A program made the position numbers and the translations under genes. The notes beneath the pieces were generated by a model. That model was not told the origin of the DNA. It saw only the letters and a program-made list of their open reading frames with translations, and searched no databases. DNA of 64,000 nucleotides from an uncultured Candidatus Actinomarina sp. (GTDB lineage: Bacteria > Actinomycetota > Acidimicrobiia > Actinomarinales > Actinomarinaceae): positions 32,369-96,368 of the forward strand of contig CACPJC010000003.1 of assembly GCA_902634185.1 (NCBI GenBank), written 5' to 3'. Each line of letters starts with the position of its first letter. The first letter of the stretch is position 1. Shown piece by piece: positions 7,979-21,849 of the stretch.

Positions 7979-9365
7979 GGGCAGCGTTTAATCTTATCTC
8001 ATCTAAGAATATTTCATTAAACAATTTGCCGTTTTCATATCTTTTTTTTAACAAATTATTTTGAATTTCTTTATCTTCTGAAATAATCTTAATTTTTTGA
8101 TTCTTCATTATTGCAAAACGCCCTCCTCTAGAATTTTTTGATTTGTCTGTTATCGGTTTTTTGTAAACATCTCTCCACGCCACACCGTCATGTAATGCAG
8201 AAACTTTCATGGCAAATGAAAAAGTATCTCTATCGACTTTTTGCAACAATGAACCTCCCATACCGAAAGTAATGTTATTTGCTGAATACTTGTTCTTCTG
8301 CATTGATAAAAGAATTTCATTAATAACATCTTTGTCTACTCCATCACCTTGAATGACTCTTATGTAATCAGGTAGCTCTTTATACCCTTTATCATTCCAT
8401 AAAAATCCAAAGTTTTTTTCATTTGATAATATATCTAATAACTTAATAATCGTTTCAGGTAAATCTCCTGAGTCTGGCCTAACTACAAGCCTTCCACCAG
8501 AGTTAATAATTTTTGATTTGAGTTCATTAGAGATAATATTTGTTGCTGTATCAAAAGTATTGTATGAATCAATAACCGAAGCAGCAACTTTACCATCTTC
8601 TTTCAAGAAAATATCAATAACATTTTCATGAGCTTCTAATTCATTTTCTTCTCCCCAGGAAGTAATTGTTGAATGTTCCGAGGCAGGAATTGAGTAAGAT
8701 ATGTCTTCTCCCGAATAATAATCTCTTAAAAATATTGCTCCCTCAACAGTATCAGAGCCAAGAAAATTTATAAGGTGTGCTGCTCCTCCAATTTGTGATG
8801 ATTCTAAACTAGATACTCCTCTTGCGCCAAAATCATGAAGCTTAAATGGTAAATCTTCTTCATACTTAGTTGAAGTTATAGATAAATAATGATTTATTAT
8901 TTTTTTTATTTCTCTCGAAATTGTCGATACAGTAGTTGGATACCAAATAGACCTTAAAAGAGCTGTTTCAATATATGAAACAAGCCATGGAACTTTAATA
9001 TCAGTATTCACTATCTGAACTAGTGGAATAGGGTTATCAACTATACTTCCTTCATCAATTGATTGAATTTCTAGCGGAAGAAATCCATTATGCTGATTTA
9101 AAATGTACTCCCAGTCTTGACGATTAAATATCCCTATATGATCCATATAAAATTTTTCTGCTTCATTAATATCTTCCATGGTTATAGGATTTAACAGATA
9201 CTTCTTAATAAAGGCTTGGAGGCCAAAAAATACAAGTTCTTGATTATTTAAATCCCTTGCTTCAATATATGCTGATAATTTCTGAGTACTTTTTGGGTAT
9301 TGTTTAAAATGTGAAACTTTATAAGAATCTACATCAAGTATAAAATTATATTTTTTTGTGTTCAT
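7971..9365 (-). CDS. nadV: Nicotinamide phosphoribosyltransferase (NAMPT/NadV family)
   Basis: 464 aa. N-terminal VDSYKVSH motif and HDFGARG block. Its 3' end overlaps korB by 8 nt (convergent). Confidence 0.85.
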   Translation of the reverse strand: MNTKKYNFILDVDSYKVSHFKQYPKSTQKLSAYIEARDLNNQELVFFGLQAFIKKYLLNPITMEDINEAEKFYMDHIGIFNRQDWEYILNQHNGFLPLEIQSIDEGSIVDNPIPLVQIVNTDIKVPWLVSYIETALLRSIWYPTTVSTISREIKKIINHYLSITSTKYEEDLPFKLHDFGARGVSSLESSQIGGAAHLINFLGSDTVEGAIFLRDYYSGEDISYSIPASEHSTITSWGEENELEAHENVIDIFLKEDGKVAASVIDSYNTFDTATNIISNELKSKIINSGGRLVVRPDSGDLPETIIKLLDILSNEKNFGFLWNDKGYKELPDYIRVIQGDGVDKDVINEILLSMQKNKYSANNITFGMGGSLLQKVDRDTFSFAMKVSALHDGVAWRDVYKKPITDKSKNSRGGRFAIMKNQKIKIISEDKEIQNNLLKKRYENGKLFNEIFLDEIRLNAALS

Positions 9366-9437
9366 GCATAAGCTACTTTTTGATTTTTACCGTATGTTTA
9401 ATTATATTTTTTTAGAATAACAATATGGCATATACTA

Positions 9438-10097
9438 ATGGAATCTAATATTTATAAAATCCGGTATGCTTTGATTGCAGAATTTTTAGGTACATTTGTT
9501 TTAGTTTTTATTGGGTGTGGTTCTATTATCCTTTCAGAAATAATGGAATTCAATAAAATATTTATTCCTATATCTTTTGGAGGATCAATTGCATTTATGG
9601 TTTATATATTAGGTAAATATTCGGGGGCACATTTTAATCCAGGTGTAACAATAGGATTTTTGATTGATAAAAAAATTAAATTAACTGACGCTTTTTTATA
9701 TATTTCAATACAGTTGTTTGGAGCCTTAATTGCATCATACATTCACTTATTAATGTTTGGCTATAACAACTCATTGGGTTTAACTGTTAAAAATACTTCT
9801 GATTTAAATGCTTACTTGTTAGAAATCTTCTTTACATTCTTACTGATGACCGTAATATTTCTTGTTACAAAAAAACAAAACTATTATGATGGAATAGCAA
9901 TTGGTGGGATTGTTGCAATAAGTGCATTCTTGATTGGAGATCTTACTGGTGGTTCATTAAATCCAGCACGTAGTCTTGGACCAATGATTGTAAAAGGAAA
10001 TTTTTTAAGTTTAGATTTATATATACTTGGACCAATAGTTGGAGCATCCTTAGCTTCCCTTATTAAAAAATTTATTGAGCAACTAATCAAAAACTAA
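9438..10097 (+). CDS. MIP-family channel (aquaporin/aquaglyceroporin-like)
   Basis: 219 aa, 6 TM. First signature reads HFNPGVT (NPG instead of NPA). Second reads SLNPARSLGP. Confidence 0.85.
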   Translation: MESNIYKIRYALIAEFLGTFVLVFIGCGSIILSEIMEFNKIFIPISFGGSIAFMVYILGKYSGAHFNPGVTIGFLIDKKIKLTDAFLYISIQLFGALIASYIHLLMFGYNNSLGLTVKNTSDLNAYLLEIFFTFLLMTVIFLVTKKQNYYDGIAIGGIVAISAFLIGDLTGGSLNPARSLGPMIVKGNFLSLDLYILGPIVGASLASLIKKFIEQLIKN

Positions 10098-10099
10098 TA

Positions 10100-10894
10100 T
10101 TAGGTAGTTAATCTATCTTTGATTTCTTCCTTTTGAAAATTTTGATTTTTTAATATGATTCTTTTTACTTCTTCAGATTTTGTTGCCAGACAAACTACAT
10201 CTTCTTTAATTAAATCAATTTCATTGCCTTCTAAGTCACTTATTGTTCCTCCAATCTCTTTAAGGATTGGTTCATAAGGTAACCTATCATGAGGAAATGG
10301 TGCATAGAAAACTATTGCATCAAAATCTGAAAATCCAAGGGAAATGATATCTTTACAAAATTGTTGTTTAGTAATGTGGGTATGTAATTTAGAAAAATCA
10401 AAATTAGAAATTGATTTTTCAACATTTATATTTTTTTCTATCATTACTGAAATTTTCTTTGATGAAGAAATATCTAAAGTATGATCAAACGTCGCTCTAA
10501 TTAATTTATTTTTCATTACGGCAACATAGATATCTTGAATTGGACAGATTACAATTCCTGTGTCCAAAATAGTATTTTCGTATGAGGCAATTAAAGTCCC
10601 CCATTCTGGCCTTCTCTGAGAAAAAGCGGTTGTTCCATCAATTGGGTCTATAATCCAAACTCTTGAACTATTTCCTTTTGTAAAACCCAACTCTTCACCA
10701 AATATTGAGTCCTCTGGAAAATAATTGCTTAAAATTTCTCTTATATTCTTTTCAACTAATATATCTACATCTGTAACAATAGAACCATCATCTTTAATGC
10801 GAATATTATATGGTTTGTAAAAGCCATTGAGTGAGGTTTCATTTACCTTTTTTACTAATTCATCAACAAAATTATCAAATTTAAAACTGTACAT
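10100..10894 (-). CDS. Inositol monophosphatase family phosphatase (SuhB/HisN/CysQ-like)
   Basis: 264 aa. GEE metal site FGEELG and WIIDPIDGTTAF motif. Confidence 0.8.
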   Translation of the reverse strand: MYSFKFDNFVDELVKKVNETSLNGFYKPYNIRIKDDGSIVTDVDILVEKNIREILSNYFPEDSIFGEELGFTKGNSSRVWIIDPIDGTTAFSQRRPEWGTLIASYENTILDTGIVICPIQDIYVAVMKNKLIRATFDHTLDISSSKKISVMIEKNINVEKSISNFDFSKLHTHITKQQFCKDIISLGFSDFDAIVFYAPFPHDRLPYEPILKEIGGTISDLEGNEIDLIKEDVVCLATKSEEVKRIILKNQNFQKEEIKDRLTT

Positions 10895-10954
10895 AAATTA
10901 ATTCTAAAGTCAAAACCAAGTGAAAAAGTAAAATAAAGAATGCAAAAAGTAAAT

Positions 10955-11836
10955 TTATCTTAAACTTAGTATAAATCCATCCCTAATTCCTAATGGTGAG
11001 ATCTTAATTCTTTCTAAACTTAAAATCTCCAAGATAACATAAATAACATATATTCCTGAATATAAAACTTCTGCTCTATATTTATTAATGTACCCCAGAT
11101 TAATTAATTCATCTAAAGACATCATTTCAATTTTGTTTAAAGAATGAATAATATTTTCACGATTTAATTCATAAAGATATTCTCTATCTAGATTATTTCC
11201 ATTTGTAAAAACCTGGTATAAATTTCTTGCAGAACCTCCACAAAAAATAACATTATTTTTAAAGTACGTACTTTCTAAATTGGCAAATTGTTTTTCTATA
11301 AATTTTTTTGTACTCTTTTTTTCATCTTCAAAGTAAGGAGGGCCTCCAATTATATTTCTAATATCTGACGTACCAAATTTAAAACTTTTCACATTGTAAG
11401 CATTATTATTTCTTACGGTAAATTCAGTACTTCCACCACCAATATCGATAACAAGTTTTTCAGAATCATCGATTAATCTGTGAACAGCTTTATACGAAAA
11501 GGTACCTTCTTGTTCAGGTGTTAAAATTTTGCCATAAAGATTCAATTCAGATTTTAAATCATTAAAGGCATTTAATCCATTTTCAGCTCTTCTAAAAGGA
11601 CTTGTACCTAATATATTCCACTCGATAGACTGGTTAAATTTCTTATTTAAAAGATCAAGAACAGCTTTTAACTCTCTTGATAATTTTGTTATCTTCTTTT
11701 CTCTTAACAATCCATGCTTTGTAATTTCACGTCCAAGCAAAGGCCATAATTTGTCAGAAAATATTAATTCCTCATTCTCATAAATAGCAAACCTTGCTGA
11801 GTTCCCACCAATATCAATTACTCCATCAATAATAAT
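10955..11836 (-). CDS. ppx: Exopolyphosphatase (Ppx/GppA family); start extended to an ATT codon
   Basis: ASKHA phosphate-1 motif DIGGNSARF lies upstream of the first TTG/ATG. Phosphate-2 motif is DIGGGSTEF. An in-frame TAA sits at 11839..11837. SD AAGGA precedes ATT-ATT-ATT (11836..11828). Confidence 0.8.
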   Translation of the reverse strand: MIIDGVIDIGGNSARFAIYENEELIFSDKLWPLLGREITKHGLLREKKITKLSRELKAVLDLLNKKFNQSIEWNILGTSPFRRAENGLNAFNDLKSELNLYGKILTPEQEGTFSYKAVHRLIDDSEKLVIDIGGGSTEFTVRNNNAYNVKSFKFGTSDIRNIIGGPPYFEDEKKSTKKFIEKQFANLESTYFKNNVIFCGGSARNLYQVFTNGNNLDREYLYELNRENIIHSLNKIEMMSLDELINLGYINKYRAEVLYSGIYVIYVILEILSLERIKISPLGIRDGFILSLR

Positions 11837-11844
11837 TTATCCTT

Positions 11845-12315
11845 TTAAATTTTAAATAGCTTTGCAGATTTTAATTTTCCTTTTTTTATTTTTATCCACC
11901 AATACCCAGCTTTTGGAACCTCAAAATTTTTAACTTCTTTTTTGCTTAATTTATTTTTATTTAAATATTTTGACAAATCGTACATTGTATCTCCATGAGT
12001 TGAAAGGATTACAGTTTTTATCTTCTGCTCAAGTGCAAACTTTAGGGAGGATTCAAACGAACCGTTTTCATTGAGTGAATCTAAAATGTTAATTGGTTGA
12101 GAAGAGTTTTGACTTAATACTCCTACTGTTTCAGTGCATCTAGTTTTAGGAGAAGAAAAAATTAATAATGGAGCAACATCTTTAAATTTTTGTCCAATTT
12201 TATTTGCTTGAAGATTTCCCTTAGCACTTAGCGGTCTTAGAGAATCGTCACCAAACCATCTTTCCCTTTTCCCGGCATGTGCGTGTCTTATAAATATTAT
12301 ATTTTCTAATTCCAT
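11845..12315 (-). CDS. Histidine phosphatase superfamily protein (SixA-like)
   Basis: 156 aa. The N-terminal IFIRHAHAG matches the RHG catalytic motif, and STHGD lies near the C-terminus. Confidence 0.75.
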   Translation of the reverse strand: MELENIIFIRHAHAGKRERWFGDDSLRPLSAKGNLQANKIGQKFKDVAPLLIFSSPKTRCTETVGVLSQNSSQPINILDSLNENGSFESSLKFALEQKIKTVILSTHGDTMYDLSKYLNKNKLSKKEVKNFEVPKAGYWWIKIKKGKLKSAKLFKI

Positions 12316-12316
12316 A

Positions 12317-14293
12317 TTATTTGTTTAACTTCTCTTGGATATTGTAGTTTCCATCTAATTTTTTCCATGTTCCATCATTTTTTAACGTCCATGAATACTT
12401 GTCAGACTTTATATATTTTTCTAAGAGACTACTGAGTTTCTTTTTTATTATCGGGCTTTTTATAGGTACTAATACTTCAATTCTATGTCTTAAGTTTCTT
12501 TGCATTAAATCTGCAGACCCTATATATATTTTTTCTATATCTGATTTTCCAAATTTATATATTCTTGAGTGTTCTAAAAAAGGACCAAGTATAGAAATAA
12601 CATTTATATTTTTAATTGGTATGAGACAACAAATTCCCCTTACTATAATATTTATCTGATTACCTGCATTAGCCGCATCATATAATTTTTGTATGATTAA
12701 TGGATCAGTAAGATTATTCAATTTTAAAACAATTTTTCCTTCTTCTCCTAAATCTATTTGTTCTTCAATTAATGAGTTAATATTTTTCTCTAAAGACTCA
12801 GGGGCTACTAGCAACTCATCAAGATTTTCTCTATCAGCATAAGCAGTTAACGAATTAAAAACTATTCCACAATCATTACCAATACTTTTATCAGATGTGA
12901 AAATGCCAATATCCTCATATCCCTTTGATGTTAAAACATTGTAATTACCTGTTCCAAAGTGCATATATGGTACTAATTCATTATTTTCTTCACGAACAAC
13001 TAAAATCATTTTGGTATGAGCTTTATATCTTGGATCTCCATACGTAACATGAACACCTGATTCTTCTAAGTATTCAGCATTCGAGATGTTTTGCTCTTCA
13101 TCGAACCGTGCTCTCAATTCAACTAAAACAGCAACTTGTTTACCTCCTCTCGCTGCACTTGCTAATAGGGATGTTATCTTATCGTTTTCAGCAGTTAAAC
13201 CAGTTCTATATTGTGTCATTTTTATGGCACGTACATATGGATCAAAACATGCTTTTTCTAAAAATCGCAAAACTGTTTTCTCAAATGAATCATAAGGATG
13301 ATGTACCATCACATCATTATTTTTAATAATTTCAAACATATCATTGCTAAATTCAAATTCAGTCTCATGTAATTTCCAACTTGTAGAAAATTCGATATGG
13401 TCTATCAAAGAATTAATTTGAAATCTAGTAAGTGGGTCCTTTAATTCTACTTGAAGGTCATAATCTATTTCTAAATTATTTTTTAAGTATTTTTGAGTTG
13501 TTACTGAAACTCCCTCTTGGATTTCTAATCTTACAATTTTTCCTAATTTTCTATTTTCTAATCCCTCTTTTACAACTTCCAGAAAATTTCGCTTTAAACT
13601 TGCTCTAAATTCTAAATCTGCATCACGAGTTGTTCTAAACCAAAACTTTTCAATAACTGTGTGTGGAAAAAACAGTTTATCAATATAGTGAAGAACCAAT
13701 TCATGTATCCATACAAGTTGTTCCTTATTTAAATTTAAAAATGAACCTAAACTTGCTGGGATTTTTATACGTATAAATTGATTATCTTCAAATTCGTTTT
13801 TGATGACTACGCCGATAGACAATGATAAATCAGAAATGTATGGAAATGGATGTGTAGGGTCTGCAGCCAAGGGAGTAAGGAGGGGTTTTATATTGTTATC
13901 AAAATAATCTTCTAAGATATCAAGCTCAGATTCAGTGAGGTCTTTCATCCTCTTAAAATTTACACCATGCTTTTCTAGATCTTTTACAAAATATTCTTTC
14001 CAAACTGTGTTTCTATTTATCATCTCCTTTTTAGCTTCTTCAAGAATATCTTTAAAATATACAAATGTTTCTTTCGAAATTGAAACATCCAGCTTTTGAT
14101 TAATAGTCTCGTAAACTTTTTCAAGCAATCCAGAAATTCGAATCTGAAAAAACTCATCTAAATTAGAATGTGTTATACCGAATAAAAATAAACGATCCTT
14201 GAAAGGAACACTGCTATCTTTTGATAAAGTTAATACTCTTTTGTTGAACTCTAACCAGGATGATTCACGATCAAGAAGATCTATATCTGTCAT
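12317..14293 (-). CDS. ppk1: Polyphosphate kinase 1
   Basis: 658 aa. N-terminal RESSWLEFNKRVL motif typical of PPK1, plus two PLD-like C-terminal domains. Confidence 0.93.
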   Translation of the reverse strand: MTDIDLLDRESSWLEFNKRVLTLSKDSSVPFKDRLFLFGITHSNLDEFFQIRISGLLEKVYETINQKLDVSISKETFVYFKDILEEAKKEMINRNTVWKEYFVKDLEKHGVNFKRMKDLTESELDILEDYFDNNIKPLLTPLAADPTHPFPYISDLSLSIGVVIKNEFEDNQFIRIKIPASLGSFLNLNKEQLVWIHELVLHYIDKLFFPHTVIEKFWFRTTRDADLEFRASLKRNFLEVVKEGLENRKLGKIVRLEIQEGVSVTTQKYLKNNLEIDYDLQVELKDPLTRFQINSLIDHIEFSTSWKLHETEFEFSNDMFEIIKNNDVMVHHPYDSFEKTVLRFLEKACFDPYVRAIKMTQYRTGLTAENDKITSLLASAARGGKQVAVLVELRARFDEEQNISNAEYLEESGVHVTYGDPRYKAHTKMILVVREENNELVPYMHFGTGNYNVLTSKGYEDIGIFTSDKSIGNDCGIVFNSLTAYADRENLDELLVAPESLEKNINSLIEEQIDLGEEGKIVLKLNNLTDPLIIQKLYDAANAGNQINIIVRGICCLIPIKNINVISILGPFLEHSRIYKFGKSDIEKIYIGSADLMQRNLRHRIEVLVPIKSPIIKKKLSSLLEKYIKSDKYSWTLKNDGTWKKLDGNYNIQEKLNK

Positions 14294-14985
14294 ACATTTT
14301 GTTTAAATTTAATTGAAAAAGTAGTGCCCTCACCTAGCAAACTGTCTAGTTCAATTGTCCCGTTATTCCTATCAACTGCATGTTTTACTATTGAAAGACC
14401 GATTCCTGTTCCACCTAAGTTTCTAGACCTGCCTTTATCAATTCTATAGAATCGTTCAAAGATTCTTTCTTGATCTTGTTGAGAGATTCCCTTACCTTTA
14501 TCTATTACTTTGAATAAAACATCTTCATCATCCTTCTTCAAATGAACTTCAATAGGAGTGTCTGGGTCAGAATAAGTAACTGCGTTACGTAATATATTTC
14601 GAACGATTAATGCAAAATCTTCTTGGTCAACATTTATATGAATATTTTCAATGTTTGCATTAAGTCTGGCTTGATCGTTTTCTTTTAAGTATGAAATTTC
14701 CATATTTACTATATTTTCAAGATCAGCAATTTCTAAATTTGGTTCATTTTGCTCAATTTTAGATAAATCAAGTAAATCACTGATAAGGAGTGACATTCGT
14801 TCACTGTTTCTAAGAATTTGTTTAATAAACTTTAATCCATCCTCTGTATTTCCATCATTTATAGCATTTAATGCTGTCTCTGCTGCTAGTTGGATAGACG
14901 TTATCGGAGTTTTCAACTCATGAGATGCATTTGCAACAAAATCTTCTCTTATTTTTTCAATATTTTGTTCTTGATTTTCATTCAT
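14290..14985 (-). CDS. senX3: Histidine kinase, DHp+CA core only (SenX3/PhoR-like, no TM or PAS)
   Basis: 231 aa. H-box NASHELKTP begins at residue ~19. N, G1 (DKGKGI) and G2 (GGTGIGLS) boxes present. Overlaps regX3 by 8 nt. Confidence 0.85.
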   Translation of the reverse strand: MNENQEQNIEKIREDFVANASHELKTPITSIQLAAETALNAINDGNTEDGLKFIKQILRNSERMSLLISDLLDLSKIEQNEPNLEIADLENIVNMEISYLKENDQARLNANIENIHINVDQEDFALIVRNILRNAVTYSDPDTPIEVHLKKDDEDVLFKVIDKGKGISQQDQERIFERFYRIDKGRSRNLGGTGIGLSIVKHAVDRNNGTIELDSLLGEGTTFSIKFKQNV

Positions 14986-15670
14986 CTTCTACAAGTTTAT
15001 ATCCTACTCCTCTAACAGTTATTAATTTTTTAGGATCTTTTGGATTTTTCTCAATTTTTTCGCGAATTCTTTGTATATGTACATCAAGTGTTTTTGAATT
15101 ACCTATAAACGTATATCCCCATATTTCATCAAATATTTGTTCTCTAGACATTAAATTACCTTTATTCTCACAGAGAGCATAAAGAAGTTCAAATTCTCGA
15201 GGTCTCAAATTAATTTGTTTATCATTAACTTTTGCTTCATATTTACCAATGTCTATCTCAATATTTCCAACTTTTATTGCCTGTGATGATTTTTCATTCT
15301 TAGACATATCTGTCCTTCGTAGCACTGCCCTGACTCTGCTTAATAATTCTCTTACAGAAAATGGCTTTATAACATAATCGTCAGCACCGATTTCAAGTCC
15401 AGCAACTCTATCAGCTTCACTATCTTTAGCAGTAACCATAATTATTGGTATATCTGATGTTTTACGAATCGATCTACATATATCTAAACCAGAAATTTCT
15501 GGAAGCATCAAATCAAGAATAATTAAACTAAACTCTTCTTCCTGGAATAGCTCTAACGCAATAGGTCCTTCATCAACATGAGTTACAGAAAAACCCTCTT
15601 GTTTTAAGTTGTATGATATTGAGTCAGCAATACTATGCTCATCCTCTACTAAAAGGACTTTTTGCTTCAT
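14978..15670 (-). CDS. regX3: OmpR/PhoB-family response regulator
   Basis: 230 aa. Receiver domain (LVEDE...ILDLMLP...KP) plus winged helix (TVRGVGYKL). Confidence 0.92.
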   Translation of the reverse strand: MKQKVLLVEDEHSIADSISYNLKQEGFSVTHVDEGPIALELFQEEEFSLIILDLMLPEISGLDICRSIRKTSDIPIIMVTAKDSEADRVAGLEIGADDYVIKPFSVRELLSRVRAVLRRTDMSKNEKSSQAIKVGNIEIDIGKYEAKVNDKQINLRPREFELLYALCENKGNLMSREQIFDEIWGYTFIGNSKTLDVHIQRIREKIEKNPKDPKKLITVRGVGYKLVEDE

Positions 15671-16311
15671 TAAAATTCTTTAAACTCTCCGGTAACCAAA
15701 AAGTGTGTGAGCTCACAAATATCAACTGCATGATCTCCACCCCTTTCTAGTGTTCGCATACAGGTAACAAGTCTAAATAATCCATTATACAAATCTTCAT
15801 TGCCAGCAATTTTTGGGGCTTCTTCTAGCATTGAGTTGTATAATCTATTTACTTGACTATCTTTTTCTGACGTTACTAGAGCTAAGTCTTTATCTCTGGT
15901 TTTTAAGCTTTCCATAGCTGATGATGCCATGTCAATTACTATATCTCCCATTTCAACAACTGTTGCATGGATAGACTCTGGTACAGGTGAATCAAAAATC
16001 TCTTTCGTCGTTTTTCCAAGATAGACAGCTAAATCACCAAGACGCTCTAAATGTAAACTGGCTTGTAAAATAGATGTAGAAAGTCTTAAGTCAGTGGCAA
16101 CAAGTTGCTCAGTGGCCATAAGTTCAATCCAGTCCTCATCAATCTTTAGGTAAGATTTATCAATTTCATCATCTTTTTCTATTGTTTCTATAGCTCTATT
16201 GACATCTTTATCCTCTAAAGCTCTTACGCCATCTACTAAAGAATCTAGTACAAGTCTTGCCATTAAATGTAAATCTGTCTCAAGATTGTCAATCTTGTCT
16301 TGTAAACTCAT
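15670..16311 (-). CDS. phoU: Phosphate signalling protein PhoU
   Basis: 213 aa two-repeat PhoU fold with ERLGDLA and ERGGDHA motifs. Confidence 0.92.
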
Positions 16312-17123
16312 CCAAACCTTCCAGATATATATTGTTCAGTTAATTCCTCATCAGGATTTGTAAACATGGTATTCGTTTCATTGAACTCAACTAATTCTCC
16401 AGTTCTTCTTTTGCCATCATCGGAGGTTTTAGTTGTAAAAAATGCACAATAATCAGAGGCTCTTGAGGCTTGCTGCATATTGTGCGTAACAATAAGAATT
16501 GAAAACTCTTTCACTAACTCTTGCATAAGGTCTTCTATTTTTTTTGTTGCTACAGGGTCTAATGCAGAGCAAGGCTCGTCCATTAAAATTGTATCTGGCT
16601 CAACTGCAATTGTTCTAGCAATACACAATCTTTGTTGCTGACCACCTGATAGCTCTAATGCATTTTTGTTTAAATCATCTTTTACTTCATCCCATAACGC
16701 TGCTTGAGTTAATGCCCTCTCTACTCTTTCATCCATATTGTCAGTCATGTTGTTGACTTTAAGCCCAAAGGTAATATTTTCTTTGATAGTTTTTGGGAAA
16801 GGATTTGGTTTTTGAAAAACCATTCCGATTCTTCTTCTCACTTGCACTGGATCAACCATTTTGTCGTATAAATCAACACCTTGATAATTTATTGTTCCAT
16901 TAACTTTTGCACCCAATATAAGATCATTCATTCTATTAAATGTTCTTATCAAAGTACTCTTTCCACAACCAGATGGGCCAATAAAAGCTGTAATTTTATT
17001 TTTAGAGATATCCATATTTACATTTTTGATAGCTACGAATTCTCCGTAGCTTACGGAGACATCTTTTACATTGAATACATTTTCATTGTTTACTTGAACT
17101 GTTTCTTTAGTTTCCATTCTCAT
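16308..17123 (-). CDS. pstB: Phosphate ABC transporter ATPase
   Basis: Walker [10 protein letters not shown], signature LSGGQQQR, Walker B ILMDEP. Confidence 0.96.
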
Positions 17124-17141
17124 TCTCCTTTATGATTTTCA

Positions 17142-18089
17142 CTAAAAATCTTTCTCATATCTGTTTCTTATAAATATTGCTATTGAATTCATTAATAATA
17201 ATAAACCTAGAAGTAAAATGATTCCAGCGGAAGCTGTCTCCTTCCACTCAGCTTGAGGATAACCAACCCAGTTATAAACTTGAATTGGAATAGCGGTAAA
17301 CCCACTTAAAGGAGTGTCTGGAAAATAATTAACATAAGTCAATGCACCCATAAAAATTAATGGTGCGGTCTCTCCAATTGCTCTTGAGAGCCCAAGGACC
17401 ATTCCAGTAACCATTCCTGGTATTGCAGAGGGAACAACCTGCCTAAAAACTGCTTGAAATTTAGTGGAACCTAGCGCCAATGCACCCTGGCGTATTGTAT
17501 CTGGAACAGCTTTAAGAGCCTCCCTAGATGCTACGATTACAACTGGAAGAATTAATAACGTTAATGTTAAACCTCCTGAAAGTACTGACCTTCCAAATCC
17601 AGCTAAACGAACAAAAACAGCTAATCCTAGTAAACCATAAATAACTGATGGAACTCCAGCCAAGTTTGTTAGATTTAATTCAATAAATCTTGTAAGCCTA
17701 TTTTTTGGAGCAAATTCTTGAAGATATATTGCTGCTCCTGCACCAAAAGGAAATGTTGCAGAAATAACTATTATCATTAACCATAATGTTCCAGCAAAAG
17801 CAGGTCCAATACCAGCTCTATCTGGATATCTTGAGTCTAAAGTTGTTAAAAAATCTCTCGGGTTATCAATTTGTATTTTTGTAATGAGGCCAACCTCGTA
17901 GTCTGATGTCAATCTTGTAGTCCCAGTAGAAAGAACATCATAGATTAAGGTCATCAAAGTTAAAATAGCAATCGTTACACAAATATAAAGAGTGAACAGA
18001 AACAAACTCTCCTTTATTGCATTTTCAGCTTTCTTGCCGGTTATAATTGTTTCGTTACTCATATTCTTTTCTGTACTTTCTAGCGACAT
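17142..18089 (-). CDS. pstA: Phosphate ABC transporter permease PstA
   Basis: 315 aa. EAA-type loop RQGALALGSTKFQ. The start may be an internal Met. Confidence 0.9.
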   Translation of the reverse strand: MSLESTEKNMSNETIITGKKAENAIKESLFLFTLYICVTIAILTLMTLIYDVLSTGTTRLTSDYEVGLITKIQIDNPRDFLTTLDSRYPDRAGIGPAFAGTLWLMIIVISATFPFGAGAAIYLQEFAPKNRLTRFIELNLTNLAGVPSVIYGLLGLAVFVRLAGFGRSVLSGGLTLTLLILPVVIVASREALKAVPDTIRQGALALGSTKFQAVFRQVVPSAIPGMVTGMVLGLSRAIGETAPLIFMGALTYVNYFPDTPLSGFTAIPIQVYNWVGYPQAEWKETASAGIILLLGLLLLMNSIAIFIRNRYEKDF

Positions 18090-18972
18090 AATCAGAAGCT
18101 ATATTCAAAATAAAAGTCATAATAAATAAAGTTATTCCAAGTGCGAATAAAGCATTATAAGCAGTGGTGCCATGAGGTGTATCACCAAGGGATACGTTTA
18201 CTATTGAGGAAGTGATCGTATACATTGCACTCCTAGGATCTAAATTTAATTCAGGATACTGCCCACCTGCAATAGTCACAATCATTGTTTCACCTATGGC
18301 TCTTGAAAAACCTAATATAAATGAAGCAATAATTCCAGATATTGCTGCAGGGAACATAATTTTAAGTGCTGTGATCCTCCTGGTAGAGCCAAGAGCTAAG
18401 GATCCATTCCTTAGAGAGTTTGGTACTGCATTAAGGGCATCATCAGAGATTGATGCAATTGTAGGTATTATCATTATTCCTACTGCAATACCTGCGGACA
18501 GAGCATTGAATACACCGGTACCTGGAATAAATCTTTGAATTATATTTGGCGTAATCCAGTTAAGTGCAAAATAACCAAATACCACTGTAGGAACTCCAGC
18601 CAAAACTTCTAAAACTGGTTTGATAACTTTTCTTGTTCTTTTTGTGGCAAACTCAGATAGGTAAATTGCAGAAAACAAACCTAATGGAAAAGAAATAAGA
18701 CACGCAATAACCGCAATATAAAGAGTTGAAGAGATTAAAACAATAACACCGTACTCAGGATTTTGAAACGTAGGTGTCCACCTAGTTGCAGTAAAATAGC
18801 CCTTTAAAGTTACAGCTGGATCTTGAAAAAAGTTAATGGCTTCAGTTAGTAAGGTAAAAACAATTGAAATTGATATTAGTATTGCTGCAAAAGCAGAGAC
18901 AGTTATAAAAAATTTTACTACTTTTTCAAAAGGTTTTATTGAGGTTTGAGATAATTCAGATAGTAGACTCAT
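18055..18972 (-). CDS. pstC: Phosphate ABC transporter permease PstC
   Basis: 305 aa. Contains RNGSLALGSTRRI and SRAIGETM motifs. Confidence 0.9.
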   Translation of the reverse strand: MSLLSELSQTSIKPFEKVVKFFITVSAFAAILISISIVFTLLTEAINFFQDPAVTLKGYFTATRWTPTFQNPEYGVIVLISSTLYIAVIACLISFPLGLFSAIYLSEFATKRTRKVIKPVLEVLAGVPTVVFGYFALNWITPNIIQRFIPGTGVFNALSAGIAVGIMIIPTIASISDDALNAVPNSLRNGSLALGSTRRITALKIMFPAAISGIIASFILGFSRAIGETMIVTIAGGQYPELNLDPRSAMYTITSSIVNVSLGDTPHGTTAYNALFALGITLFIMTFILNIASDYVARKYRKEYE

Positions 18973-19015
18973 ATTTTGCTTTTTATTCTTTCTTTAACTT
19001 CTTCTTTAATTGTAG

Positions 19016-19044
19016 TTTGTGAGGGCCAATTAGGCCCTCACAAA
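19016..19044 (-). terminator. Perfect 12-bp hairpin between pstS and pstC (intra-operon attenuator candidate)
   Basis: tttgtgagggcc (19016..19027), loop aatta, ggccctcacaaa (19033..19044). GC-rich core in an AT-rich genome. Confidence 0.55.
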
Positions 19045-19065
19045 TTTACAAATAATTGAGGAGTT

Positions 19066-20922
19066 TTATCCTCGACTGAATGCGGACCAGCCCATCAATG
19101 ATGCCATCTTTTGTTCTGGAAGCATTGGAACATATCCCACTGCTGGGACAATTGCATCCATTGCTACGAAATAAAAGTCAACAAATTGACGAACTTGAGA
19201 CATTCCTTTTGCAGCTTCAGCTACATAAATGAATAGCGGACGTGCTAGGAAGTAATTTCCTTCAAAAGCTGCTTCTGGTGGTTGACAACCATCACCTGCA
19301 TCAACTTCAACAGCAGTTAGTTTATCTTTGTTCTCTTCATAATATGCGAGTCCAAAGTATCCTAATCCACCAGCTGATCCTGCGACACCGTTTACGAGAA
19401 CGTTGTCATCTTCAGATGCTGTATAGTCTGATCGACTTCCACCTGCGTCTTCTGTAAGCTCTTCATTGAAGAAGTCAAATGTACCTGAGTCTGTACCTGG
19501 ACCATATAGGTCTAGTGCAACATCAGGGAAACCTGCTCTAACATCTTTCCAGTTTGTTATTGTGCTATCTGCACCCCAGATTGATGTTAATTCAGCAGTT
19601 GTTAAACATGTTGCCCAGTCATTTGATGTTGGAACAACAACAGAAAGTGCATCGATACCTACTTGAATTTCAAGGTATCCAACACCATTTTCTTCACAAA
19701 GTGCTTTTTCTTTATCTTTAATTGGACGTGACGCGTCTGAAATCATTGTCTCACCTGGACAGAATTTCTTGAATCCTCCACCAGTTCCTGAAACACCGAC
19801 TGATATAGCTACATCTGAATGAATAGCTGTAAACTCTTCAGCAACGGCTTGTGTTACAGGGAACACTGTCGATGAACCATCAATAAGAATTTCTCCACTG
19901 AGGGTTGAATCGCCAGATATAACCTGCCAGTATTCTAATTGTCTATCAGCTGCATCTGGCAACATTGGTATGTAGCCAACAGCTTCAACAATTGGATCAA
20001 GTGAGTCAAAGTAAAAGTCAACGAAAGCTTTGATTACAGGATCTTTTGCTTTAGCATCATTTACATATATAAATAATGGTCTTGCTAATCCATAAGTTCC
20101 TGAGAAAGCTCCTTCAGGACCTATACATCCTTTTCCTGCATCAACTTCAACAGCAGTTAGTTTATCTTTGTTCTCTTCATAATATGCGAGTCCAAAGTAT
20201 CCTAATCCACCAGCTGATCCAGAGACACCGTTTACGAGAACGTTGTCATCTTCAGATGCTGTATAGTCTGATCGACTTCCACCCAAATCTTCAGTTATTT
20301 CTTCATTGAAGAAGTCAAATGTACCTGAGTCTGTACCTGGACCATATAGGTCTAGTGCAACATCAGGGAAACCTGCTCTAACATCTTTCCAGTTTGTTAT
20401 TGTGCTATCTGCACCCCAGATTTTTCCTAATTCTTCAACTGTTAAACATGTTGCCCAGTCATTTGATGTTGGAACAACAACAGAAAGTGCATCTACACCG
20501 ACTTGTAGTTCAGTGAACTCTGTGCCACCTTCATAACAGAGATTTCTTTCTTTATCTTTGATTGGTCTTGAAGCATCAGATATATCTGTTTCTCCAGGAC
20601 AAAATTTCTTGAATCCTCCACCGGTTCCTGACACACCTACAGATATTTCTACACCTGGGTTAACTGCAGTAAATTCTTCTGCTACAGCTTGTGTAATAGG
20701 GAAAACAGTTGAAGATCCGTCGATAAGTATTGATCCAGTTAAGCCTGCATCACTACTACCACTATCAGAAGCTACAGTTGTTTGACTACTGGCTGTTTCC
20801 TCCGATGTTGTTGGTTCTTCACTTTCTTCTGAAGAGGTATCATCATCTCCACCACCACAGGCAGCAAGAACGAGAACCATCACAAGAAGTAAAGACCAAA
20901 ACTTAGATCTTGATCTAATCAT
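19066..20922 (-). CDS. pstS: Lipoprotein made of two tandem PstS phosphate-binding domains
   Basis: 618 aa. Lipobox LAAC. The block [11 protein letters not shown](I/V)TQAVAEEF...[29 protein letters not shown]... occurs twice, 280 aa apart. Confidence 0.92.
19298..19655 (-). repeat. Near-identical intragenic DNA tract, copy in PstS domain 2
   Basis: Aligns with 20138..20495 at an offset of exactly 840 nt, with only short mismatched patches. Confidence 0.85.
20138..20495 (-). repeat. Near-identical intragenic DNA tract, copy in PstS domain 1
   Basis: Partner of 19298..19655. Confidence 0.85.
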
Positions 20923-20974
20923 GGATTTCCTTTCTTTAATTTAATTAAATTAACAATGGTAAGAGTATTTTGTA

Positions 20975-20996
20975 AAAGTAAACGCAAAGTAAACGT
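20975..20996 (-). promoter_or_regulatory. PHO-box-like 11-bp phased direct repeat upstream of pstS
   Basis: On the pstS strand it reads ACGTTTACTTT-GCGTTTACTTT, ending ~50 nt before the ATG. Confidence 0.45.
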
Positions 20997-21018
20997 TAAG
21001 CTTAAATATGTTTAAGTT

Positions 21019-21849
21019 TCAAATTAACTCAGTAGGTGAAAACCAATTTCCTCTATTAAATGCTAGGATATAACTTTCGTATCCAAGAAAGTCTTTTTGA
21101 TATTCTTCAGGGATATTGAATCCCCACCAATCTGTTTTAAATTGTGATCGATGAGCCTTCATAGAATTGATTTTATTTTCAATATACTTTGTTCCATCTA
21201 TTTCGACATCAATATCCTCATTATCACTTCCGATAGGATTAAATGCATTAAACTCATCTTCAGTTAATATTCCAGCCTCATACATTTGAGTTCGTCTTGC
21301 TTGAATTCTCGATTTTGACCACGCATTAAAATAAAGTCTTTCTGGAATCCATATGTCTTCTTCATCTTTTAATGGAAACTTATCTATATCACCAGCTGCA
21401 AAAAACGCAGCTGTTCCAACTCTATGTGTTTGAATATGATCAGGATGCCCATATCCCCCAAATGGATCATAGGTTATTAAAACATCAGGTTTATATTTTC
21501 TTATTTCTGTCACAAGCTTGCCCACAGGTCCAAAATAGTCTTGTCTCCAAAAACAATCAGGATCATTGTTCTCCTCTGTGCCCATCATTCCAGAGTCTTT
21601 ATATCCAAGCCATTCATATTCTTTTACACCTAGAGCATCTAAACTTTTTTCAAGTTCCTCTTTTCGCATTTCAGCCAATTTTGGAAATAACTCTTCTGGG
21701 TTTTCATAGTTATGAATTTCTCCAGCTGAACCATCAGTTGCTGTAACAACAACAACTCGATGACCTTCATCTGCATATTTAGCTAAGGTAACACCTGTTG
21801 ATACGCTTTCATCGTCAGGATGTGCGTGAAAAGCAAGAATTGTTGCCAT
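21019..21849 (-). CDS. PIG-L/LmbE-family deacetylase (MshB/Mca-like)
   Basis: 276 aa. AHPDDES metal motif and HPDH. Its ATG overlaps the atpC stop (TAATG). Confidence 0.8.
   Translation of the reverse strand: MATILAFHAHPDDESVSTGVTLAKYADEGHRVVVVTATDGSAGEIHNYENPEELFPKLAEMRKEELEKSLDALGVKEYEWLGYKDSGMMGTEENNDPDCFWRQDYFGPVGKLVTEIRKYKPDVLITYDPFGGYGHPDHIQTHRVGTAAFFAAGDIDKFPLKDEEDIWIPERLYFNAWSKSRIQARRTQMYEAGILTEDEFNAFNPIGSDNEDIDVEIDGTKYIENKINSMKAHRSQFKTDWWGFNIPEEYQKDFLGYESYILAFNRGNWFSPTELI

Follow-up and report, generated by a model that had tools for sequence, protein, structure and literature searches.

The pstS gene of an uncultured Candidatus Actinomarina sp. (19066..20922, minus strand, in the 64,000-nucleotide (nt) stretch of contig CACPJC010000003.1 that was analysed and is here called the window) encodes a lipoprotein of 618 amino acids (aa) in which two PstS modules stand in tandem. 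The central ~357 nt of the two modules are homogenised by recurrent, ongoing, non-reciprocal recombination (gene conversion) between direct repeats. The homogenised tract very probably also mediates in-frame deletions of 840 nt, by crossover or slippage. We are confident that an old duplication, two intact modules, conversion of the centre and these very probable deletions together give the best overall explanation of what is seen at this locus and in its relatives.

Two PstS modules behind a single lipid anchor

The open reading frame (ORF) begins with a signal peptide (aa 1-22; 20857..20922, minus strand) ending in VLAAC22, and the lipobox, read by eye from the sequence, is L-A-A-C22, in agreement with the pattern [LVI][ASTVI][GAS]C. 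This cysteine is invariant across 66 double-module homologues, and the N-termini of lipoprotein families match that of the pstS product weakly. A tether rich in Asp, Glu, Ser and Thr (aa 23-60; 20743..20856, minus strand), predicted to be disordered from its composition and from the structural model described below, leads to module 1 (aa 61-340; 19903..20742, minus strand). Module 2 (aa 341-618; 19069..19902, minus strand) follows after a minimal junction, with ~3-5 residues between it and the C-terminal helix of module 1. The repeat offset is exactly 280 aa, or 840 nt, and between the modules the 618-aa ORF contains no stop codon and no second signal peptide. Two stretches of the product are matched by Pfam PF12849 (PBP_like_2; 222.8 bits against a cutoff of 27) and by NCBIfam TIGR02136 ('PstS family'; 514.7 bits against a cutoff of 206.6).

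An earlier note on this DNA had described one ORF with a single lipoprotein signal, an acidic or Ser-rich linker and two PstS domains 280 aa apart, and had taken this for a true fusion. Both the sequence and the profile matches agree with that layout, and the fusion is kept as one uninterrupted protein of 613-618 aa in independent single-cell genomes and metagenome contigs. The diverged peptides quoted in the note are found in the pstS product exactly as given there.

Homogenisation of the module centres

An unsupervised maximum chi-square scan placed the low-divergence tract at 20137..20493 in module 1 (codons 144-262) and at 19297..19653 in module 2 (codons 424-542); both copies are on the minus strand, and their limits differ by no more than 2 nt from those of the near-identical segments, 840 nt apart, that had been picked out earlier. 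Divergence along the two halves is mosaic and not uniform, with DNA identity between the modules at 95% in the tract (18 differences in 357 nt) against 64% outside it. The earlier description of the tract as almost identical thus holds at the level of 95%, but not as full identity, as there are two small clusters of differences (codons 162-167 and 208-212) as well as one at codon 234. Between codons 143 and 262 the modules show almost no synonymous differences, whereas such differences abound in the flanks, also at conserved amino acids. When only degenerate codons encoding the same amino acid were counted, 3/109 differed between the modules in the centre and 54/101 in the flanks (Fisher p = 3e-18), including 32/64 in the N-flank. 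Furthermore, the longest identical run between the modules is 123 nt, against a maximum of 56 nt in 20,000 permutations.

The relatives that we compared were a TARA contig (L001), which is 17 nt off the window, a single-cell genome (L003), which is 7 nt off, and a second two-module clade (L002, L004 and L005) at 88% protein identity. The outgroup (L006) was an Actinomycetota metagenome-assembled genome with the same gene order and a single 332-aa PstS. In the flanks, orthologues from different lineages are separated by nucleotide distances of 15-19% (module 1) and 20-21% (module 2), and the two modules of one genome by 27% in the N-flank and 44% in the C-flank. The order is reversed in the centre, where orthologues are ~15% apart and the modules of one genome differ by 5.8% in the window, 3.0% in L001 and 8-12% in the second clade. 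The centre is therefore subject to concerted evolution, being closer within a genome than to its orthologues. Synonymous divergence (dS; Nei-Gojobori) gives the same contrast: in the centre it is 0.08 between modules and 0.67-0.72 between orthologues, and in the flanks, between modules, it is saturated at ~1.4. Because orthologous central dS is so much higher than that between the modules, the centre is neither mutationally cold nor codon-constrained.

Conversion can also be followed between strains. In L003, G>A changes relative to the window occur at nt 463 and nt 1303 of the coding sequence, exactly 840 nt apart, and replace Asp by Asn in each module. The 17 differences between L001 and the window include a cluster of 11 at coding-sequence nt 1464-1542 in module 2, by which this patch has become identical to module 1. 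The longest identical run varies with the strain (123, 265, 146, 156 and 239 nt), and across alleles the centre is kept 88-97% identical between the modules. The right-hand boundary of the tract (~repeat nt 606-618) is common to all lineages and the left-hand boundary is not. The conversion of ~120 central codons within the gene that had been proposed from the sequence of the window is thus upheld by synonymous mosaicism, by the phylogenetic incongruence of centre and flanks, and by the paired and patch substitutions between strains. Mechanistically, the process would be RecA-dependent or would involve slippage or annealing.

It could be argued that no recombination has occurred and that the centre is merely under far stronger constraint, be it on the protein, the codons or the mRNA, and the centre is indeed the most conserved part of the protein across the family. 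However, the synonymous sites of these same central codons are free to change between orthologues, half of the same-amino-acid codons in the N-flank differ synonymously, and constraint cannot bring paralogues nearer to each other than orthologues in the centre alone. We therefore regard constraint without recombination as extremely improbable.

An artefact of assembly, in which a short-read assembler created the duplication or the near-identity of the tract by mis-threading repeats or popping bubbles, is also very improbable. The tract of 357 nt and its identical runs of 123-265 nt are, admittedly, longer than common k-mers and reads, and damaged public versions of the gene do exist, such as the proteins P0007 (591 aa) and P0019 (468 aa) and the adaptor-derived tails in P0121 and P0129. 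Nevertheless, the two-module gene with the same diverged flanks has come out of different pipelines, in three single-cell genomes, TARA scaffolds and Joint Genome Institute contigs, and one identical 618-aa protein is encoded on 13 contigs. The flanks are unique sequence, so that the gene order is unambiguous. The tract has not collapsed to 100% identity but carries strain-specific differences, and both modules show clean purifying selection. Finally, the G>A pair (nt 463 and 1303) lies in an identical run of 54 nt, which should be too short for merging at k >= 55.

The damaged versions have peculiarities of their own. P0007, which is encoded at L100 (LULO01003258.1), is without 'GLGYF…VEVDAG' in module 1 and has 'DGC' duplicated in module 2, and P0019 has an internal deletion and a frameshifted end; the odd in-frame changes in these two versions, both from NCBI metagenomes, are either repeat misassemblies or further recombination products. 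P0121 and P0129 are truncated and end in the unrelated peptides …AVSYTHLTLPTICSV and …CLLYTSDAADE. These tails presumably arose by translation of sequencing adaptors left at contig ends, and would be a case of adaptor contamination in public assemblies.

One-module chimeras and the probable loss of a module

Recombination between the two copies of the tract would join aa 1-262 to aa 543-618, and we used this predicted recombinant of 338 aa as a query. The search returned single-module proteins of that exact design, represented by P0122 (338 aa, 31 cluster members), P0123 (334 aa, 76 members) and P0121 (8 members); the chimeric genes encode 334-338 aa. Their DNA follows module 1 as far as the tract and module 2 beyond it. 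There are essentially no mismatches on either side of the tract in L086-L088 when compared with the double gene of L004, or in L101 when compared with that of L094, and a handful in L085 against L005 and in L089 and L098 against the window type. The sources are diverse, comprising a single-cell genome (L086, GCA_902586445.1), MEGAHIT contigs (L087, ERZ27265944, and L089, ERZ27267479), SPAdes contigs and a Sanger-era Global Ocean Sampling (GOS) contig (L098), and the crossover interval differs between L098 and L089.

Single and double forms can be found in otherwise nearly identical surroundings, the single L089 and the double L001 being 99.6-100% identical in atpD, atpC, the PIG-L-type gene and pstC. 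A diverged lineage (L083, L084 and L097) is seen in the single form only, in three samples, and two of its members are separated by a dS of 0.22 with a ratio of nonsynonymous to synonymous divergence (dN/dS) of 0.007. When metagenome contigs were scanned with a 38-mer specific to the N-flank of module 1, the classifiable matches were 4 doubles and 5 chimeric singles. One metagenome, Ga0213864, contains both a double gene (L092, 617 aa) and a chimeric single of a different lineage (L097, 335 aa), on separate ~10-kb contigs.

The chimeric single was also considered as the ancestral form of the gene. This was rejected, as its N-flank carries derived module-1 states and the outgroup singles (L006, P0134 and others) are module-2-like throughout.

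A more serious alternative is that the chimeric genes are all in-silico collapses of double genes, in which case there would be conversion without any true polymorphism in module number. The crossovers are all located in the longest identical runs, the very places at which de Bruijn graphs become ambiguous, several chimeras are almost free of mismatches to known doubles (L086-L088 and L101, as above), and the many fragmentary proteins in the clusters indicate that assemblies do break at pstS. Against a general collapse, the MEGAHIT contigs L089 (27.6 kb) and L087 run straight through the chimeric gene; MEGAHIT outputs unitigs, and would be expected to break at a repeat node and not to skip an equally covered loop. 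In addition, the single-cell genome L086 comes from a project that assembled double genes correctly, the Sanger-based GOS contig (1,344 nt) contains a complete chimeric gene, and the L083/L084/L097 lineage is known only in the single form from its three samples. Collapse as an account of every chimera is thus improbable, and we consider it highly likely that the one-module chimeric alleles are real.

Fold, phosphate ligands and constraint

An AlphaFold2 model built on an alignment of the 66 two-module homologues predicts that both modules are well folded, with a per-residue confidence score (pLDDT) of ~90, and gives scores below 50 to residues 1-58. Each modelled module has the two lobes of a Venus-flytrap fold. 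The best Foldseek match in the PDB is the single-module protein 4JWO from Planctomyces limnophilus (template-modelling (TM) score 0.89, E = 5e-31), and all structural matches in the PDB are single-module phosphate-binding proteins.

Phosphate ligands were mapped by alignment to PBP-1 of Clostridium perfringens (4Q8R), together with the contact lists for PBP-1 and for SphX of Synechocystis (PMC5381212, PMC13614923). The predicted ligands of module 1 are S70, S71 and T72 in a Ser-Ser-Thr loop, T100 (the Thr of SGTGGG), S118 (the Ser of ASR) and S199, G200 and T201 in a Ser-Gly-Thr loop, with D144 and R281 as an Asp-Arg pair. In module 2, at +280, they are S350, S351, T352, T380, S398, S479, G480 and T481, with D424 and R561 as the pair. 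The comparison with characterised PstS structures thus finds the full set in both modules, and nearly all of the predicted ligand residues are invariant in the 66 homologues. Where D-type PstS has its phosphate-binding Arg, both modules have Pro (P195 and P475), as SphX does, and they have Ser in place of the D-type Asp that forms the low-barrier hydrogen bond. In every respect that could be tested, the pstS product is an S-type, SphX-like member of the PstS family. As the phosphate-contact residues are identical in both modules, the earlier suggestion of two specificities is without support. The other suggestion, that of two binding sites on each anchored molecule, is consistent with the intact ligand residues and the purifying selection in both modules.

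In terms of the fold, the conversion tract is probably a rough equivalent of lobe II, and lobe I would be made up of the diverged flanks. Of the ligands, those at 70-72, 100 and 118 are within the diverged N-flank and the 199-201 loop is within the homogenised tract; D144 and R281 are on the two crossover strands in the secondary-structure order of the AlphaFold2 model; and the loops of SphX domain II (residues 94-104, 118-138 and 157-168) map to ~148-221 of the pstS product.

In both modules, flanks and centre alike have an orthologous dN/dS of 0.04-0.12 and, to judge from these values, both modules are intact and under strong purifying selection. That one module is a decaying remnant, and that the protein works as a one-site PstS, is therefore most unlikely: the loss of one module by deletion does seem to be tolerated, but the low dN/dS applies to both modules, and both retain their ligand residues and high pLDDT scores.

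Across lineages, the flanks group module 1 with module 1 and module 2 with module 2, so the duplication is older than the split of the two clades. Compared with the single-module outgroup, nonsynonymous divergence (dN) in the flanks is 0.31 for module 1 and 0.22 for module 2, and in the C-flank it is 0.45 and 0.30, respectively. Of the two copies, module 1 has therefore evolved faster and module 2 has been more conservative; the single module of L006, at the same syntenic site, likewise resembles module 2 in its flanks, and the flanks of module 2 are like those of the ancestral single-module gene. This difference in rate would fit with functional divergence of the modules, in which they differ in affinity, or one docks on PstCA and the other serves as a capture antenna, and the divergence of lobe I is adaptive. 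A preprint on GlnPQ (bioRxiv 10.1101/2020.12.19.423572) describes tandem binding domains that differ in affinity and in delivery efficiency. However, the modules of the pstS product do not differ in their first-shell ligand residues or in their Asp-Arg pair, present-day constraint is similarly strong on both, and a hybrid lobe I (N-flank of module 1 and C-flank of module 2) seems to be viable in the chimeras, given the dN/dS of 0.007 between two diverged examples. On balance, functional divergence of the modules appears unlikely.

The pst operon and the apparent mobility of its cassette

The pstS gene heads an operon in the order pstS-pstC-pstA-pstB-phoU (15670-20922, minus strand), and relatives keep the same order. 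The downstream genes, all on the minus strand, are pstC (18055-18972), pstA (17142-18089), pstB (16308-17123) and phoU (15670-16311). On the same strand, a response regulator (14978-15670) comes next and then, at 14290-14985, a short histidine kinase. These genes were identified as ORFs and from the Pfam annotation of their syntenic counterparts at L083 and L089. The stop of pstS is at 19066 and pstC is a separate ORF from 18972. The spacer of 93 nt between them contains a hairpin (19016..19044, minus strand) with a perfect 12-bp stem and a 5-nt loop. It is without a T-run and was not called as an intrinsic terminator by the terminator scan; it is a candidate attenuator or mRNA stabiliser. Upstream of pstS, two 11-nt direct repeats, GTTTACTTTGC and GTTTACTTTTA (20973..20994, minus strand), end 50 nt from the ATG and, as a candidate Pho box, could be the target of the response regulator encoded at 14978-15670. 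Their GTTTAC cores are kept in five loci, including the distant single-module relative L006.

The histidine kinase beside the Pho-type response regulator has only 231 aa (HisKA and HATPase), which leaves no space for a membrane sensor or a PAS region, and its relatives are likewise of 230-231 aa. Phosphate might perhaps be sensed via PhoU or PstB.

The pstS genes of the window and of the single-cell genome Candidatus Actinomarina sp. AG-920-J05 are 99.6% identical in DNA sequence. The region around it has a history of its own. Over a cassette at ~14290-21849, which comprises a gene for a PIG-L-type deacetylase, pstSCAB, phoU, the response regulator and the histidine kinase, L089 and L001 have 99.1-100% identity to the window. 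In the adjoining atpG, atpD and atpC the figure is no more than 82-85%, and the left boundary of the shared cassette is near the junction of atpC and the PIG-L-type gene (~21849). From these identities, it looks as though a Pho cassette of at least 7 kb has recently been exchanged, or has swept, between Actinomarina lineages that have diverged to the species level. In ungapped comparisons, the PIG-L-type gene of L006 is 89% identical to the L004/L005 clade and 76% to the window, and its atpD is ~77% identical to L004/L005 and to the window alike. This contrast hints at mosaic ancestry around the pst locus.

Downstream of the Pho cassette, and forming one large phosphate supercluster with it, are further genes for phosphate metabolism: those for polyphosphate kinase (ppk, 12317-14293) and a SixA-like histidine phosphatase (11845-12315), then a gene resembling Ppx/GppA (10955-11740) and one resembling inositol monophosphatase (10100-10894). 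The guanine plus cytosine (G+C) content of the window is ~35% and falls to 27-32% over 8000-14300, which is a run of phosphate-metabolism genes.

Multi-module PstS proteins in other lineages

The survey of related sequences for single and double PstS, which the earlier note had proposed, found single, double and triple forms. Among the best 120 database matches to the full 618-aa protein, 104 were double and 15 were triple. Many of the multi-module matches are from Chloroflexota and other phyla, and their annotation, where there is any, is only 'PstS family'. Those from outside Actinomarina are ~50% identical to the Actinomarina protein, and the modules within most of them are 77-100% identical to each other. 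In 48/119, including P0051 and P0080, which share a homologous junction, the similarity between the modules exceeds that of the whole protein to its nearest relative of the same architecture. This likeness within proteins points to recurrent duplication, to concerted evolution or to both. When 50%-identity representatives were searched exhaustively, no more than ~8 of the 150 best-scoring clusters turned out to be multi-module, and such fusions are therefore a recurrent minority of the PstS family.

In many doubles from outside Actinomarina (P0031, P0026, P0038 and others), the linker repeats the end of the N-terminal tether, 'QTQPASAAKLDGTIEIDG' being present twice in P0031, and thus the duplicated unit in these proteins included part of the tether. 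One member of the representative library, P0397 (1067 aa), has six stretches that match a single-module query, and may contain more than three modules or reflect fragmented matches. The Methylophilaceae loci L015 and L039, where tblastn matches extend over ~2 kb, were tried as further fusions and rejected, as there was no long ORF at the sampled position in the middle of the match.

In the searchable literature, we found no description of tandem, fused or duplicated PstS or of gene conversion in PstS, and the paper on Actinomarinales genomes does no more than list phosphate transporters. Double and triple PstS fusions are thus widespread in public data and yet, apparently, undescribed.

A proposed history and its significance

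In the history that we propose, an old internal tandem duplication brought two complete Venus-flytrap modules of the phosphate-binding kind together behind a single lipid anchor. The flanks, which probably make up lobe I, have since diverged to synonymous saturation, and conversion has kept the centre, probably lobe II, alike. The confinement of conversion to the centre could be explained if the flanks have diverged past the identity needed for strand exchange, with the identical core becoming self-perpetuating. Very probably, crossover or slippage in the tract also removes exactly 840 nt and leaves an in-frame chimera made up of the module-1 N-flank, the centre and the module-2 C-flank, and two-module and one-module alleles for this reason coexist in ocean populations. 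The pst operon is probably Pho-regulated. By analogy with the tandem domains of GlnPQ and their substrates, phosphate is probably bound by both modules and passed on to PstCA. For a very small, single-membraned cell in phosphate-poor water, the benefit would probably be a greater number of binding sites for each anchor, signal peptide, transcript and transporter.

Some points weigh against this history, or at least against parts of it. The relative orientation of the two modules is uncertain in the AlphaFold2 model (predicted TM score 0.61), and the binding of phosphate by both modules and their docking on PstCA are read from conservation. Similarly, the link between the tract and lobe II comes from topology and from loops mapped with the help of a paper, not from coordinates. 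The movement of the Pho cassette between lineages complicates the comparisons of orthologues. Short-read assemblers can collapse tandem repeats, and some of the chimeric contigs could be artefacts for that reason. A three-module allele is the expected reciprocal product of unequal exchange, and no such Actinomarina allele was present among the high-scoring matches, an absence that is uninformative, as short reads could not have assembled one.

A wider reading would be that module number, two or one, is a standing polymorphism in Actinomarina, generated by recombination and sorted by the availability of phosphate. The tract would keep producing deletions, the double form would be regained only by re-acquisition of the Pho cassette, and similar dynamics would lie behind the recurrent double and triple fusions across phyla. 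We put this forward tentatively, and consider it less likely than not.

PstS sets phosphate scavenging, and phosphate is often limiting in the surface ocean, where Candidatus Actinomarina is abundant, extremely small and streamlined in its genome. A fused receptor with two sites would be a cheap doubling of the capture sites on each anchor. The pstS locus also provides an unusually clean natural case in which an old duplication with divergence of one lobe, ongoing conversion of the other and loss of a whole module by recombination can be followed together, with both alleles recoverable from metagenomes. It raises the questions of how module number relates to phosphate stress and how tandem lipoprotein receptors affect uptake. 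There is a practical warning too, in that short-read assemblies break, truncate or may collapse the double pstS.

Comparison with known systems

The Actinomarina protein has its family, fold and ligand set in common with S-type, SphX-like PstS proteins such as Synechocystis SphX, C. perfringens PBP-1 (4Q8R/4GD5) and P. limnophilus 4JWO. With SphX, it shares the Pro at the position of the D-type Arg and the Ser that replaces the low-barrier-hydrogen-bond Asp (PMC13614923, PMC5381212), whereas PBP-1 has a phosphate-binding Arg where the pstS product has P195 and P475. The solved or characterised S-type PstS proteins are, however, single modules of ~240-375 aa, in contrast to the two modules on one anchor, with a junction of a few residues, in Actinomarina.

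Additional capacity to bind phosphate for a single Pst transporter has been obtained in other phosphate-limited organisms through separate pstS paralogues, as with PstS1-3 in Mycobacterium or the three PstS homologues of Synechococcus WH8102 (PMC10846223). Those paralogues have their own signal peptides and regulation, but the extra copy in Actinomarina is fused in frame and has no additional promoter, signal or anchor. The multi-module proteins of other phyla, such as the 682-aa protein of Chloroflexus sp. (P0107) and the triple proteins of ~945 aa (P0002 and P0004), are closer in design, with one N-terminal Cys lipobox followed by two or three modules. Their modules are separated by long Pro/Ala-rich linkers, unlike the minimal junction in Actinomarina, where the diverged flanks expose the conversion tract.

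The ABC importer GlnPQ of Lactococcus lactis, with serial binding domains in one polypeptide and one translocator, is the best-studied precedent for raising the local concentration of receptors. The two systems are alike in having two binding domains in series in one polypeptide. In GlnPQ, the binding domains are joined to the membrane domain and have different specificities and affinities, whereas Actinomarina PstS is a separate lipoprotein with identical ligand residues and partly converted DNA. Because it is not fused to a membrane domain, and pstC is an ORF of its own, Actinomarina PstS is not a member of the GlnPQ type.

Concerted evolution by RecA-type gene conversion, as in tufA/tufB and the rRNA operons, and variation of repeat number in surface proteins are classical phenomena. 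The behaviour of pstS is that of classical concerted evolution together with direct-repeat deletion: copies are closer within a genome than orthologues are between genomes, the boundaries are mosaic, and direct repeats give rise to deletions. What is unusual is that it takes place within one ORF and at the level of a whole receptor module, since the repeats here are the two halves of the ORF, each of them a complete ligand-binding module. Conversion also seems to be confined to one lobe, and the product of deletion is a functional-looking chimeric receptor and not a shorter array. The value of the locus is thus that of a worked example of concerted evolution inside one gene, and not of a novel type of system.

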